This document shows, in pieces, positions 1,770 through 64,000 of a stretch of DNA of 64,000 bases (position 1 is the stretch's first letter; each line of letters begins with the position of its first letter). The notes under the pieces are model-generated. The model saw only the letters and a list, made by a program, of their open reading frames with translations, had not been told where the DNA came from and searched no databases. The translations under genes were made by a program, and so were the position numbers. Source of the DNA: Candidatus Hermodarchaeum yapensis (GTDB taxonomy: Archaea > Asgardarchaeota > Hermodarchaeia > Hermodarchaeales > Hermodarchaeaceae); NCBI GenBank assembly GCA_016840405.1, contig JAEOSK010000005.1:1-64000 (forward strand), written 5' to 3'.

Positions 1770-2618
1770 ATGATTCATCACGTCTTCATCATCGATGCAC
1801 GGCATGATATAGTCGTGCAGAAGAAGTTTTGGGTCATCGACGTGAATACCATTGAAGTTGAGGATTTTGCCACACGGATTAAAGAGAGCAAATCACTGTT
1901 TATCGAACAAATAGGTGAAACAAAATACATCGGACAGCCACTTGGACGGGGTGTTGTTATTTTATGTGCCGAGTCAGTCGATGAAGACACGACACTCTTG
2001 GAAAAACTCGAAAAAGTGACTGACGAATTCCGCCGTGTCATCAGCTACCAAGAAGAGTACGAAGACTTCATGCAAAAAGTTGACCAATACGTGACGACCA
2101 AGCTCAAGGTCAGCATCCTCGGTTACGGTGGAGTAGGAAAAACAACCATGGTCCATCTCCTTAATGGTGGAGGGATCCCCCAGACTTATATTCCCACTAT
2201 TGGTATTGATATTCAAAAAGTCGAAGGCGCCCGTATTGGCACCTATGAGATTCTGTGTTGGGACTTTGCGGGACAGGCGCGGTTTCGGAAGTTATGGAAA
2301 GCACTCTTTTCCCGAAGCCGAATTGTTTTCATTGTCACCGATTCAACCCTTGAAAATGTCCTGCAAAGTAAAGATATCATCACGTTTCTCCATGAGAACG
2401 GCGTTGGCAGTGAAATCGTCGCCATTGCAAATAAACAGGACTTGAAGGGAGCACTACAACCTCATCTCGTGCAACGGGTGCTAGGCGTTAAAACCTATGG
2501 GTTGACTGCTATTGACCCTGAGAATCGTGAGGTCGCTTTGGATATCATTCGTATGAGCTTGGAGAAGACGTTGGACTGGGAGAAGATGGAATTCGATACC
2601 ATCGACTTCACGCCTTAA
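1770..2618 (+). CDS. Arf/Rab-like small GTPase with N-terminal longin-like domain
   Basis: G1 GYGGVGKT, G2 PTIG, G3 WDFAGQ, G4 NKQD, G5 TAI; ~105-aa N-terminal alpha/beta domain starting MIHHVFIID. Confidence 0.88.
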   Translation: MIHHVFIIDARHDIVVQKKFWVIDVNTIEVEDFATRIKESKSLFIEQIGETKYIGQPLGRGVVILCAESVDEDTTLLEKLEKVTDEFRRVISYQEEYEDFMQKVDQYVTTKLKVSILGYGGVGKTTMVHLLNGGGIPQTYIPTIGIDIQKVEGARIGTYEILCWDFAGQARFRKLWKALFSRSRIVFIVTDSTLENVLQSKDIITFLHENGVGSEIVAIANKQDLKGALQPHLVQRVLGVKTYGLTAIDPENREVALDIIRMSLEKTLDWEKMEFDTIDFTP

Positions 2619-58441: not shown

Positions 58442-59506
58442 ATGCCAGATGAACCAAAGGCTCACCGGATGCAGCTCCCTGGCGAAGTTGTTATTGGATC
58501 AGGTGTTGTTCATCAATTGGGGGAAGTTGTCCAACGGGTTGTCCCCTCACGACGCGTAATTCTCATCACCAATAAGGACCTGATGAGCGTCGTCGGGAAC
58601 GATGCTGTAACAGCCCTGGAACAGGCACAATATGATGTTGAAGTTATTTACATCAAAAAAGCCACCGATGAAGAAGTGGATAAATCCTGTGAACAACTGC
58701 GTAAGCAAAGTGCGGGTGTTGTTGTTGCTGTGGGTGGAGGTTCCGTCATTGATACGGCAAAATTGTGTTCAACCAAAGAGGGACAACCATTTGTAAGTGT
58801 CCCCACCTCAGCTGCCCATGACGGCATTTCGAGTCCCAGGGCATCTATCAAAAAGGATGGAACCTCTGTCTCCGTTGAGGGACAATCACCAATTGCGATA
58901 GTGGCTGACACACGAGTCGTTACTCAGGCGCCCTTCCGGTTCACTGCTGCCGGTTGTGGAGACTTAATATCAAAAATTACAGCAGTTCGAGACTGGAAAC
59001 TAGCGCATACTCTTGGCTACGAGTATTATGGAGAATATGCAGCATCCATGTCGCTTATGGGATCTCAAATAATCATCGAAAATGCAGCCACAATAAAACC
59101 AGGTAATGAACAAAGTGTTCGCATGGTCCTTGAAGCCCTTATCGCTAGCGGCATCGCGATGGGTATTGCTGGGTCAAGTCGACCAGCAAGTGGATCTGAA
59201 CACAAGTTCAGCCATGCTCTTGACCGAATCGCCCCCAATCCAGCTCTTCATGGTGAACAGTGTGGTGTTGGAACGATTATGATGGGATATCTCCACGCCA
59301 TTAACTGGGAAGAAATTCGTGATGCACTAGCAACCGTTGGTGCCCCTACAACCGCAAAGGAACTTGGGATGAAAGATGAACATATAATTGAAGCGCTAAA
59401 GATTGCTCACACTATCAATCCTAATCGTTATACTATTCTGGGTGAAAAAGGGCTCACGGAAAAGGCTGCGAAACGCCTTGCACGAATCACAGGCGTCATT
59501 AAATAA
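58442..59506 (+). CDS. egsA: sn-glycerol-1-phosphate dehydrogenase
   Basis: GGGSVIDTAK, PTSAAHDGISSP, SSRPASGSEHKFSHALD, LHGEQCG, RYTILG. Confidence 0.95.
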   Translation: MPDEPKAHRMQLPGEVVIGSGVVHQLGEVVQRVVPSRRVILITNKDLMSVVGNDAVTALEQAQYDVEVIYIKKATDEEVDKSCEQLRKQSAGVVVAVGGGSVIDTAKLCSTKEGQPFVSVPTSAAHDGISSPRASIKKDGTSVSVEGQSPIAIVADTRVVTQAPFRFTAAGCGDLISKITAVRDWKLAHTLGYEYYGEYAASMSLMGSQIIIENAATIKPGNEQSVRMVLEALIASGIAMGIAGSSRPASGSEHKFSHALDRIAPNPALHGEQCGVGTIMMGYLHAINWEEIRDALATVGAPTTAKELGMKDEHIIEALKIAHTINPNRYTILGEKGLTEKAAKRLARITGVIK

Positions 59507-59587: not shown

Positions 59588-60679
59588 GTGAAAGACCTGA
59601 TCCACCAACTCTATGTTATCAGTAAAAATGGACCACTTCTCTTCGAAAAGACGTACATCAAAGGGGCAACATCAACTGATCCTGATTTATCCTCCGGCCT
59701 CATAACCGCCCTCTATCATTTTACCAAAGACACTCACGCTGAGATAATTCAAAAATTCGAAATGGAAGACCTCAAACTCATCTTCGATGAGAGCGAAACG
59801 CTACTATTTGCAGCGACTGTTGATAACAAACTTCCAGACAAGGATGCCATTGATGTCATCGAACGAATCCGTGACTATTGGATTCTCCACTATGGCGAAC
59901 AAAAAGGAACCAAAATTGAACGGACAAAATACGAACCCTTTGCCATCGATGCTGAACGAATCATCGTTGAGAACTTATGGTGGTTGGGTGAAGGAAAAAA
60001 ATTCAGTTTACGGAATCAGGGACGCTATCTGAAAGAAACTATCACACGCCCAAGCCGATGTGTCGGAGCCCGTTATCTTAGTAAAAGCTTCCTGCTTACA
60101 CCGATTCTCATTCTACTCGCAACAGTTGTAATCTCATTCATCTTACAGGGTCAAGTCATGGGATTCGGGATGATGTTCTTTGAAACCCAGGCACTCGAAT
60201 ACCTCATCACGATGACGTTCAACATCGTTGCTTTTTGGCTCATTCTAGCGGTCATGACGACAGCCATTAATAGTCGTCGAGATACCCTTCGAGAAACAAT
60301 CCTCTCATCCGGCTATGTCATGATCTTTATGCTAGCCCTTTTCTTCGTGGCGTCCAAATTCTATGTCGATTTTGTCTATTCGTTGATTTTTCCAGGATTC
60401 TCATCTCTACCCTTTGATGCTCGAATCAATATCACCAATGACCCCAATTTACAGGTGATTAACTACCTCCTCTGGACAGGTCCAGGTACGATTCTCCTCT
60501 TCACTTGGTTAATTCTGTTTGCTTATGTCACCTACAATCTTCAACGACCCAAACCACTACAACATGTCCTTGCTATCGCCGTTGCTTTTGTGTTTGTCAT
60601 CCTAGTGCAAACCGCCTTCTATTACTTCATCTTTGGAGTACCAGTTCTAACACCAATACCATTAACTCCTGCACCTTAA
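59588..60679 (+). CDS. Longin domain fused to a five-TM (Yip1-like) membrane domain
   Basis: LYVISKNG.LLF...DPDL.SGLITALYHF longin pattern; then ITRPS and five TM segments. Confidence 0.72.
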   Translation: MKDLIHQLYVISKNGPLLFEKTYIKGATSTDPDLSSGLITALYHFTKDTHAEIIQKFEMEDLKLIFDESETLLFAATVDNKLPDKDAIDVIERIRDYWILHYGEQKGTKIERTKYEPFAIDAERIIVENLWWLGEGKKFSLRNQGRYLKETITRPSRCVGARYLSKSFLLTPILILLATVVISFILQGQVMGFGMMFFETQALEYLITMTFNIVAFWLILAVMTTAINSRRDTLRETILSSGYVMIFMLALFFVASKFYVDFVYSLIFPGFSSLPFDARINITNDPNLQVINYLLWTGPGTILLFTWLILFAYVTYNLQRPKPLQHVLAIAVAFVFVILVQTAFYYFIFGVPVLTPIPLTPAP

Positions 60680-60680
60680 G

Positions 60681-60770
60681 TAGAAAGAAAAAAGGTCGAA
60701 GAAAAAAGAGGGGAGGGAGGGGACCAGTAGTCCCCCATATTTTGATTAGGGAGAGCAGAGGCTCCTAATC
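60681..60770 (-). terminator. Two hairpins plus T-tracts downstream of the large surface-protein gene
   Basis: GATTAGG(G)AG/CTCCTAATC (60744-70) and GGGGAC/GTCCCC (60719-35), followed on the minus strand by T-rich runs. Confidence 0.6.
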
Positions 60771-63700
60771 TAGCGGTCGGCCCAATAATCGCTTGTTGCC
60801 TTGCGAGTTGCCTTGGAGGGCCCAGAACCGCGACGACGAACATTCATAATACCAACAACTACCAAGATGACAAGGATGGCGACGCCAATCGCAATTATTC
60901 CAACATTTTGAAGTAGCCAGTCTAGCCCGTCTCCGGGTGGTGGACCGGGTGGAATCATGTTTAGTGCGCTGGTGTAGATGCCGAAGTAGGGATCGTTGTC
61001 AATGGAATAGCCGTCCCAGTTGGTAAAGCCAGAAAGCATGAAGAAGAAGGTGCTTTCCATTTCCCAATGGGTCACGCTCTTTCCAGTTTCTGAATGGAAC
61101 ATCGCGCTAAAGGCGCCCATTGGAACTGTGGCGGCAGAGCAGTTGTAGGTTTGACCGTCTTTGCCCCAGTCATAGAGTTGGCCGCCCATTTGCACGGATG
61201 CGAACGTACGTCCTTCGGAGCCAAAAAGGTACATGTCACCGATTTCGGTGTTCTCATTATTACTAGCGACTTGTTTGTTGTCAACGCTGAATTCAGAGAA
61301 GGTGTCAGTGCTGAGTGCACCGAAGTAGCTGATAGCAAGTCCACGCCCTTCAAGAACTCGGTTGTCGAAGTGATGGAGGGTCCAATCCCCGATGTATTGA
61401 TCAACCTTGATGTCTACGAGGTTATTGTTTGGTTCAGGGTTCTCTGCTGTGTTCGCAAGTAAGACTTGGAAGTGAACATCAAATCCGATTTCATCGATAG
61501 TGGCTTGGGAAACCATGTAGTCAAAGTCTGTGGCATTAAGACCAACTAGACCAGCACCAGTACCATGGTAGTCCCAGCAGCTTTTGAGTCCTGTTCCGAG
61601 TTCAGTATGGGTTGGAAAGAGGGTTCCAGTGATATCATAGATTCGGACACCATAATCAACCCATTCGCTGGTAGAGATTTGTCGTTGACCATCTGATTCA
61701 GTAGAGTTGAAAGGTAAGGTGAAACTGATGCTTCCGACATCTTCCATTAGGAAGTAGTGGGTTACTTCGTCAGTATCAATAAACCCTTCAGTGACGTAAA
61801 AATCGGGAACTCCATTACCTCCAAGTGTTTGGTTATCAGTAAACAGGAGGAGGCCAGAGAAGGCAGTGTGGAAGTTTGCGTGAGTTGTAGAATTGTCATC
61901 AAAGGCGAGTACAAAGCCTTGGGTGGTGTCAAAACCAAACCAGGAAAATTCCCAAGTGTTATCATCAAGCCACCACCATTCAGCTTGGATGTCGTCCCAG
62001 CTTCGGTTGAGGGTCATCCAAGCGATGCCATGATAACCCGGAGCAGGTATCTGTTCAGTCATATTCAGCCAGACGGTATCGAGGATCGATGCCATTTCAG
62101 GTGCACTGACGAGAGATAAGTCGTTGCTGTGATACCAGTAGAAGGATTCGTTCCATTGGTAGGTTACTCGGTCAGTGTGCAACCCCATCCAGCTGGAGGA
62201 CATAAATTCGTCGCCTTGATGCTCAAACATTGGTGTTGGATCAAAGGTGATATGAACAAAGAGCGAATCATCCGTCCATTCATGATCGTCGTGCCAATTG
62301 TAAACCCGCTTCACATAGTACTGGTCAGCGATTGTTTCGAGGTCACCGTCTAAATCGAGTGCACCGTCTTCAGTAACCGCCCATAACTCAGGAATATAGG
62401 ACCAGGTGTTGCCTAGGGTGAACCATGAGGGAGTCCATTGGGTTCGTCCACCAAAGTAGAGAAACTCTATGTTCCACCATTGGGGTTCCCAGGTGCCAGT
62501 CGTATTCCAGTAGATAGTGCGGTTTTGTTGTGCTTGGAACTCAAACCAGTAGTCGCCATGAGGCGCTCCATTTAAGAATTTCATTTCTACGTTAAACTTC
62601 GTCAACTGTTCAGCAATGTCAATTTCAACGCCAAAAACCTGAATAAGGTTTGAGAGACCAACTGTGGTGTTCGTTTCAACCCGGCTTACCAAGAAACCAT
62701 CCATGCTAAACCAAGTTTCATTGACTATACTACAGTATTGGTCAATCACTGTCAAAGTATCAGCATCAATGAGCAGATTGATGCTAGAATAGGCATTCCA
62801 ATTATGCGTGTCATTCCATCCCCAAGCATTCCCGCCAATCCAAAGGGTTATAGTCTCCAATGTGAGCTCCTCACGTTCCCATTGTCCAGCAGAATTGTCT
62901 GGATCACTAAAGTGTTCAAAGAGTTCAGAGGATGCATGTACATCCAAGGAAATGTTAACGTGCTCCAGGGGATCTGCTTGTGTGCGGATTTCTCCGGTAA
63001 AAGCGTCACGAATGAAGCCATCGGCAAGGAAGTCATTGTATCCAAATCGAAAACCATCTGTCTCACAGAAGCTCATGCTGGGCTCGGCTCGTTTTCCATC
63101 AAGTGTGGAAGTGCCATGCTCTCGGGGTTGTCCAGCCCAGACATGGAAGAATCCGCCATAATTATCGTTACCGTGATTCAATACTGCCTCGGTTAACGAA
63201 AACTTCCAGTGGATAGTCTGAGGATCTAAATCACCGCTCGAAGGATCAAAGACGATGAAATCAGGAAGGATAGAGGCATTGACAACCATCTCTGGTTGAT
63301 ACATCCAATTACCCATTCCACTACCGTAATCTTCCCAGACATAGGATTCATACTTGTAAAACGCAAAGGCTTCAGCAACATCTGTTGTTGCATTATAAGA
63401 GAAGCCAAGGCTAGGATACAGCCACGCTTCATACTCGTACCACGCCGTGTTAAAGTCCGAATAATCTTCAGGATATGAGACATTCATGCGAATAACGTAT
63501 TCTGGTTGCCAGCCTCCATCAATAATCCAGTCAAGGGAGAAACCGGCAAAACCGACTGGTTCAGTCATAGTAAGTTCGACAATAAGGGGATCTCCAGCTT
63601 CAGCGTACTGAATGGGCATTAAAGATGTCCCGTTCAATAGTCGTAATTCGTATTCGGGCATTGGCATGAAACCATGGTGGAAGTCCAGTTCACATTCAAG

Positions 63701-64000
63701 AGCAATGGGGGGCATGGGCATATCGCCAGTGTAGCCTAGATTGAACCAACTAGGATAGATGAAGTTGTTTGCGTCGTCCATAGCATGAGCATAGCTATGA
63801 TACACACCAATGGGTGCGAAAGAGTTGAAAACTCCAGTGAAGGTGATATTGAGCATTGTCGTGTCTTCCGTGATGAATCCACCCTGAAAGTCAAAGAATT
63901 CCACAGGGTCTCGTGGGTCGCTGGGCATCATGTCATGAAGAGCACTGAATACATTCCAGTCACCTGTCTTTGTGAAATAATCCATCCAGATGCCAGCAGA
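60770..64000 (-). CDS. Very large acidic cell-surface glycoprotein with C-terminal TM anchor (5' partial)
   Basis: Frame stays open to the window end; many NxS/T sequons, W/Y/F/D-rich, DLDGD motif, PPGPPP linker, TM, basic tail. Confidence 0.8.
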   Translation of the reverse strand, partial: SAGIWMDYFTKTGDWNVFSALHDMMPSDPRDPVEFFDFQGGFITEDTTMLNITFTGVFNSFAPIGVYHSYAHAMDDANNFIYPSWFNLGYTGDMPMPPIALECELDFHHGFMPMPEYELRLLNGTSLMPIQYAEAGDPLIVELTMTEPVGFAGFSLDWIIDGGWQPEYVIRMNVSYPEDYSDFNTAWYEYEAWLYPSLGFSYNATTDVAEAFAFYKYESYVWEDYGSGMGNWMYQPEMVVNASILPDFIVFDPSSGDLDPQTIHWKFSLTEAVLNHGNDNYGGFFHVWAGQPREHGTSTLDGKRAEPSMSFCETDGFRFGYNDFLADGFIRDAFTGEIRTQADPLEHVNISLDVHASSELFEHFSDPDNSAGQWEREELTLETITLWIGGNAWGWNDTHNWNAYSSINLLIDADTLTVIDQYCSIVNETWFSMDGFLVSRVETNTTVGLSNLIQVFGVEIDIAEQLTKFNVEMKFLNGAPHGDYWFEFQAQQNRTIYWNTTGTWEPQWWNIEFLYFGGRTQWTPSWFTLGNTWSYIPELWAVTEDGALDLDGDLETIADQYYVKRVYNWHDDHEWTDDSLFVHITFDPTPMFEHQGDEFMSSSWMGLHTDRVTYQWNESFYWYHSNDLSLVSAPEMASILDTVWLNMTEQIPAPGYHGIAWMTLNRSWDDIQAEWWWLDDNTWEFSWFGFDTTQGFVLAFDDNSTTHANFHTAFSGLLLFTDNQTLGGNGVPDFYVTEGFIDTDEVTHYFLMEDVGSISFTLPFNSTESDGQRQISTSEWVDYGVRIYDITGTLFPTHTELGTGLKSCWDYHGTGAGLVGLNATDFDYMVSQATIDEIGFDVHFQVLLANTAENPEPNNNLVDIKVDQYIGDWTLHHFDNRVLEGRGLAISYFGALSTDTFSEFSVDNKQVASNNENTEIGDMYLFGSEGRTFASVQMGGQLYDWGKDGQTYNCSAATVPMGAFSAMFHSETGKSVTHWEMESTFFFMLSGFTNWDGYSIDNDPYFGIYTSALNMIPPGPPPGDGLDWLLQNVGIIAIGVAILVILVVVGIMNVRRRGSGPSKATRKATSDYWADR

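Follow-up and report, generated by a model that had tools for sequence, protein, structure and literature searches.

A single gene in the window, the 64,000-nucleotide stretch of Candidatus Hermodarchaeum yapensis DNA analysed here, joins a longin domain to a predicted membrane domain of Yip1 type. The fusion is a new domain architecture made of two known trafficking-related domains, and it is conserved well beyond the window's genome; no description of it was found in the literature searched on Asgard longins and Yip1. Eukaryotes keep a longin and a Yip1-type domain as separate vesicle-traffic proteins, whereas this Asgard gene carries both.

The fusion gene and its two domains

The gene itself is confirmed in the Hermodarchaeia genome (Table 1). 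It is co-oriented with egsA, from which 81 bp separate it, and homologues at 53–85% identity share an identical first residue with the 363-aa ORF. The GTG start is further supported by a relative that has lost the gene, since the stub that remains there retains the same GTG and the first 22 codons. In a second Hermodarchaeia genus ~46 codons of open frame precede the first ATG and encode a match to the longin N-terminus (L003:6001-7071, L004:2260-3351), which implies a non-standard start codon in that genus and database entries that lack the N-terminus. The hairpin 3′ of the stop codon may be a terminator between the fusion gene and a convergent gene of 1071+ aa. The latter (60770-64000, minus strand) encodes a large, S-layer-like secreted protein with a C-terminal TM anchor; Pfam gave no match for this protein, which is conserved and, in one relative, tandemly duplicated. 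One sediment metatranscriptome contained two identical 151-nt contigs within the fusion gene (59994-60293, depth 4); these possibly derive from DNA and are too little for showing expression.

Table 1. Coordinates of the fusion gene, its domains and adjacent features in the window.
Feature	Position	Strand	Basis or remark
egsA-like glycerol-1-phosphate dehydrogenase (Fe-ADH_2)	58442..59506	+	5′ neighbour in Hermodarchaeia only
Longin–Yip1-fold fusion gene	59588..60679	+	363 aa, GTG start; ORF, homologue comparison and AF2
Longin domain, aa 1-132, predicted cytoplasmic	59588..59983	+	AF2, Foldseek, VIA, family alignment
Amphipathic helix ending R154-P155, aa 141-155	60008..60052	+	Matches pre-TM1 helix-Pro of Yip1 domains
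Five TM helices, aa 166-185, 203-227, 231-254, 286-319, 323-349	60083..60634	+	Predicted Yip1-like fold, probably N-in/C-out
GC hairpin then T-run 3′ of stop codon	60719..60735	+	Consensus match only

The preliminary description had called the N-terminal domain a longin, and structure prediction bore this out. The AF2 model built from 62 sequences reached pLDDT 90.6 and pTM 0.86 and has five strands and three helices over aa 5-129 (strands aa 5-12, 17-22, 56-58, 62-68 and 72-79; helices aa 32-50, 84-102 and 118-129). As in longins, alpha1 lies on one face of a five-stranded sheet in the model and the two C-terminal helices on the opposite face, and, unlike a roadblock domain, aa 1-132 carry no N-terminal helix. 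The best Foldseek matches were AP sigma/mu, TRAPP, Mon1-Ccz1 and zeta-COP, with E down to 2.5e-4 for AP sigma subunits. VIA placed CPLANE (Fuzzy) highest (Z 15.2, rmsd 2.6, 125 aligned), followed by VAMP7 and Sec22 (both Z 13.9), BLOC-3 (13.3), TRAPP and Mon1 (both 13.2), and longins (Z 15.2-11.4) ranked above roadblocks (at most 11.4). Fuz_longin_1 matched 28 of the 62 family members (best E 1.8e-4), below the curated cut-off among the matches listed; no Pfam longin family was matched above that cut-off, and the sub-threshold matches were to Fuz_longin_1 and Clat_adaptor_s only. An AF2 model built from 19 sequences did not resolve the longin part and had no Foldseek match in the PDB, a BFVD search returned only weak matches, to giant-virus longin SNAREs, ESM Atlas feature searches gave no usable match and an NCBIfam search nothing meaningful. 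On the predicted structure, the assignment of aa 1-132 as a longin domain is firm.

The amphipathic helix ending in RP and the five subsequent TMs of the preliminary description are likewise present. The helix (aa 141-153, hydrophobic moment ~1.6) leads into R154-P155, hydrophobic segments are centred near aa 177, 215, 246, 303 and 336, and a positive-inside charge bias suggests an N-in/C-out topology for the TM domain. The GY of TM3 and the W of TM4, put forward as Yip1 features, were found (G242-Y243, W296), but they are invariant only in a Hermodarchaeia/Ranarchaeia subfamily and are missing from the Heimdallarchaeia forms; Pro299 in TM4 is conserved.

The likeness to Yip1 that had been claimed for the TM region rests on structure: it held for predicted models (TM 0.66-0.73) but not for sequence (Pfam E at least 0.02). 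In an atlas structure search, with predicted models on both sides of the comparison, TM by target was 0.73 for a cluster that is 14% PF04893 (184/189 aligned), 0.66 for a 'Yip1 domain-containing' entry and 0.49 for GYF-Yip1 (60% PF04893), while unrelated rows stayed at or below 0.30. No solved Yip1 structure was found for comparison, and no solved structure clearly matched the TM domain, the best by VIA (Z 5.8) being a designed bundle. PF04893 did not exceed threshold (best E 0.022, in 3 of the 62 members), and HHalign against 32 Asgard Yip1 sequences gave E 0.015-0.06, with the register kept between the pre-TM1 Pro and TM5. Judging from the models, aa 140-350 very probably adopt the Yip1 fold, and the TM domain is likely a divergent Yip1-fold family outside the eukaryotic YIPF subfamilies. 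When the TM-only profile of the fusion family was run against the protein collection, no stand-alone relatives emerged, and the Yip1 genes of the window's genome were not ranked by it.

The window's genome also carries two over-threshold Yip1 genes, in one of which a Zn-ribbon-like N-terminus takes the place of the longin. This Zn-ribbon-Yip1 gene (L005:390-2229) converges on an E1/ThiF-like gene, called E1-like solely from the look of its sequence, with a slight overlap between the two, an arrangement that agrees with published ubiquitin/ESCRT neighbourhoods of Asgard Yip1. In many genomes of family f31 (f31 and relatives, L044-L063), stand-alone Yip1 adjoins a UbiA prenyltransferase gene, possibly a lipid-synthesis link for ordinary Asgard Yip1.

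Distribution, forms and loss of the gene

The family was surveyed in 400 Asgard genomes with the TM-only profile, scoring 5-7 candidates per genome. Strong matches were obtained in 48 genomes, from Hermodarchaeia (f1, 6/19) and four Heimdallarchaeia families (f6, 1/1; f7, 30/31; f8, 3/3; f9, 8/12), and the full-length profile returned the same genomes; among the candidates scored, no other Asgard family, f10-f12 of 'Ca. Heimdallarchaeota' included, had a match below E 5e-5. The f7 genomes include those of Ca. Heimdallarchaeum aukensis and endolithica, and f9 groups with Heimdallarchaeota LC_2 in the tree, a group that we take to be Kariarchaeaceae. A Ranarchaeia member also exists and, as judged from sequence, the fusion is kept across three Asgard classes.

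Three forms were distinguished: a 5-TM form in Hermodarchaeia and Ranarchaeia; a 7-TM form in Heimdallarchaeia, with an extra helix pair between the longin and the Yip1 part; and a divergent paralogue with 5 TMs, which two f9 genomes carry alongside the 7-TM form. Because the added TMs come as a pair, the longin would stay cytoplasmic in the 7-TM form. One divergent member (P0023, L106:1480-2763) has extra hydrophobic helices inserted inside the Yip1-like region. Long-form subclades follow family lines in the tree, a quick, unrooted search with long branches that fixes neither the donor nor the order of events.

The preliminary description implied a link to egsA, which did not survive the comparison of relatives. 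egsA lies directly 5′ of the fusion gene only in Hermodarchaeia, and most of the Hermodarchaeia sampled have lost the fusion gene. Seven of these genomes keep the NAD kinase-DUF1844-egsA order with other genes downstream in place of the fusion gene, which was not found elsewhere in the five of the seven that were checked. In one of the seven genomes (G106), an 82-aa ORF after egsA (L146:2643-2891) begins with 22 codons that are 86% identical to those of the fusion gene and continues into unrelated sequence; to judge by these codons, the stub is a direct trace of a recent deletion. The fusion gene can thus be dispensed with, and it is not bound to egsA. A link between the two is not supported, and egsA is not a functional part of the fusion system on present evidence.

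Lipid genes adjoin the fusion gene in four or five lineages. Direct neighbours are egsA in Hermodarchaeia, HMG-CoA reductase in Ranarchaeia and CDP-alcohol phosphatidyltransferase in f8, to which can be added DegV beside one short paralogue and a convergent geranylgeranyl-reductase-like gene. Such neighbours would suit a protein that reads the state of the membrane and regulates ether-lipid synthesis through egsA or other lipid enzymes. This idea arose after the data were seen, however; ~10 neighbourhoods read later contained no clear lipid case beyond the weak, convergent reductase-like gene, and the seven Hermodarchaeia that keep the egsA cassette do so without the fusion gene. We regard it as highly improbable.

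Transporter neighbours and possible non-GTPase roles

The most conserved neighbour link in the family is to a MacB/FtsX permease pair. The long form lies directly 5′ of orthologous permease genes (~380 and ~1400 aa) in 20 of the 21 f7 genomes examined and at four f9-type loci, and the pair is downstream even though the upstream genes differ between f7 and f9. In Bacillus subtilis, the Yip1-family subunit YknW modulates the MacAB-like transporter YknXYZ (PMC4338810). The fusion could likewise help to assemble a MacB/FtsX-type ABC transporter or serve it as a regulated accessory subunit, the longin providing the regulatory input. In that case the copy in Hermodarchaeia would be an orphan in the course of being lost; such a role would be compatible with GTPase recruitment. 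Co-encoding is present for most Heimdallarchaeia long forms but absent for the window's gene. No adjacent permease pair accompanies the fusion in f8, four other f9 genomes, Ranarchaeia, the short paralogues or Hermodarchaeia, the only FtsX gene near it in f6 is a different one at a greater distance, and no orthologue of the large permease was found in the window's genome. The permease synteny may also equal inherited inertia, and we consider an accessory role of this kind unlikely. One permease of the conserved Heimdallarchaeia pair at L041:7354-12706 has an extracellular region of ~1200 aa.

Yip1 proteins occur in all three domains of life, their prokaryotic function is unknown (PMC10307638 SI 4.3.2), and transporter, receptor and chaperone roles have been proposed for YIPF (PMC6682643). 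Asgard longins, for their part, occur in fusions with many unrelated partners, two-component modules among them (10.1101/2020.10.19.343400). This breadth of longin fusion weakens the Rosetta-stone argument by which the gene had been taken to connect two trafficking modules. The architecture would also accord with a membrane sensor, transporter or chaperone like prokaryotic Yip1, in which the longin relays to non-GTPase partners and the fusion is one more product of longin shuffling, such fusions being many and lineage-specific. The TM helices contain conserved polar and Pro residues (W217, P299, N/T301, Q341) and the extracellular loops vary across the family, as such a role might predict. However, no conserved charged residues such as a transport path would typically have were seen, a conserved two-component or transporter-regulator neighbour was not found in the neighbourhoods examined, and a role of this kind seems rather unlikely.

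Small GTPases as candidate partners, and comparison with known systems

By analogy with known longin systems, we tentatively favour, with a confidence a little short of evenly balanced, a dispensable membrane scaffold whose longin would recruit a GTPase or a longin partner. The five-helix bundle of predicted Yip1 fold would lie in the cell membrane with its N-terminus inside, as the charge bias suggests, and would hold the longin at the cytoplasmic face just above the amphipathic helix, in an arrangement that the pTM suggests is fixed. Longin alpha1 would pair with another longin or with a roadblock domain, the simplest partner being one of the genome's longin-GTPase fusions, such as that at 1770..2618 of the window. 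The paired longin could then dock a small-GTPase switch at a membrane site or complex, as in Mon1-Ccz1, TRAPP and SRalpha-SRbeta, and docking would substitute for the prenyl anchors absent from Asgard Rab-like proteins.

The genome encodes 28 small-GTPase-like proteins, five of them in an extended group that includes 1770..2618 and of which two are matched by the longin profile. The product of 1770-2618 is an Arf/Rag-like GTPase with an N-terminal longin-like extension of ~100 aa and has four paralogues in the genome. Among the 15 longin-profile matches in the genome, the fusion is the sole polytopic protein. Another membrane-anchored longin, by its predicted features, is the 1422-aa product of G000:C51:9826-14094: it has a signal peptide and a single TM near 1148, and its longin-like domain, at ~1209-1326, is cytoplasmic.

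Several observations argue for docking: the longin fold is nearest to GTPase-platform longins by VIA (CPLANE, BLOC-3, TRAPP, Mon1), alpha1 residues L34, G37 and A41 are 100% conserved in all three subfamilies of the family alignment, the 7-TM form keeps a cytoplasmic longin, and the fusion persists in three classes. Others argue against it. The best structural matches also include SNARE and adaptor longins, which are not GEF platforms; the alpha1 motif is generic, the full-length profile picking up Asgard longins in most genomes; most sampled Hermodarchaeia are without the gene; and YIPF motifs 1 and 2 are not satisfied. GTPase genes were not conserved neighbours: apart from f8 and a single f9 genome, none lay three genes away or closer, and Hermodarchaeia and f7 had no such case. 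The binding of Rab GTPases by YIPF proteins, on which the preliminary description drew, has its main basis in yeast two-hybrid experiments and was not confirmed for mammalian proteins (PMC6682643). By analogy, the membrane receptor for small GTPases proposed there is still plausible.

Asgard Rab-like proteins have no C-terminal cysteines or prenylation sites and were not membrane-localised in HeLa cells, and the literature has yet to settle how, lacking prenyl anchors, they get to membranes (PMC10933270). An anchor would be useful because these sites are missing, and the fusion suggests, by analogy, how small GTPases might be kept at the membrane in the absence of lipid anchors. Any GTPase binding by the Asgard fusion would differ from that of yeast Yip1, which has a preference for doubly prenylated Rabs. 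It is doubtful, though conceivable, that a receptor capturing unprenylated small GTPases through a longin-on-Yip1 platform came down from the ancestor shared by Hermod-, Ran- and Heimdallarchaeia; if it did, the Yip1-GTPase link of the eukaryotic Golgi would be older than prenylation and internal membranes. There is no agreed mechanism for eukaryotic YIPF (PMC6682643) or prokaryotic Yip1 (PMC10307638 SI), and the fusion offers one concrete, expressible test object for both the GTPase-anchoring and the Yip1-mechanism questions. Its value is limited, as the distribution is patchy, the gene has been lost repeatedly and Asgard longins are promiscuous in general.

Eukaryotic YIPF proteins (Yip1p/Yif1p, YIPF1-7; PF04893, CL0112) resemble the fusion in their five TMs, cytoplasmic N-terminus, short external C-terminus and helix ending in Pro before TM1. 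Of their motifs, K/R-phi-x-x-phi-phi-x-P, D-L/F-x-G/I-P and phi-phi-G-Y (PMC6682643), the fusion has the first only loosely (a helix ending R-P), lacks the second and shares the Gly-Tyr of the third, in TM3, in the Hermodarchaeia/Ranarchaeia subfamily only. It differs further in that its N-terminal region is a folded longin and that it falls below the Pfam threshold, and the Heimdallarchaeia form has two extra TMs and no Gly-Tyr. Stand-alone Asgard and prokaryotic Yip1 proteins (arCOG02054/COG2881; Eme et al. 2023; YknW), the Asgard homologues of which are already published (PMC10307638 SI 4.3.2), share the predicted fold and a weak, in-register profile match, and YknW also shares MacB/FtsX neighbours with the Heimdallarchaeia forms, but the fusion is a separate, divergent family. 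The longin GTPase platforms (Mon1-Ccz1, BLOC-3, CPLANE/Fuzzy, TRAPP Bet5-Trs23, SRalpha SRX) and longin SNAREs (VAMP7, Sec22) have the longin fold in common with it (Z 11-15, rmsd ~2.6-3.3 Å over ~120 residues by VIA); in contrast to these, it is a single longin on a polytopic membrane domain, with no SNARE motif and no tri-longin repeat. Other Asgard longin fusions (longin-GTPase, -TRAPPC3, -DENN and -two-component) are alike in longin type, alpha1 motif and patchy distribution, and differ in the partner domain, which in the fusion family is Yip1.
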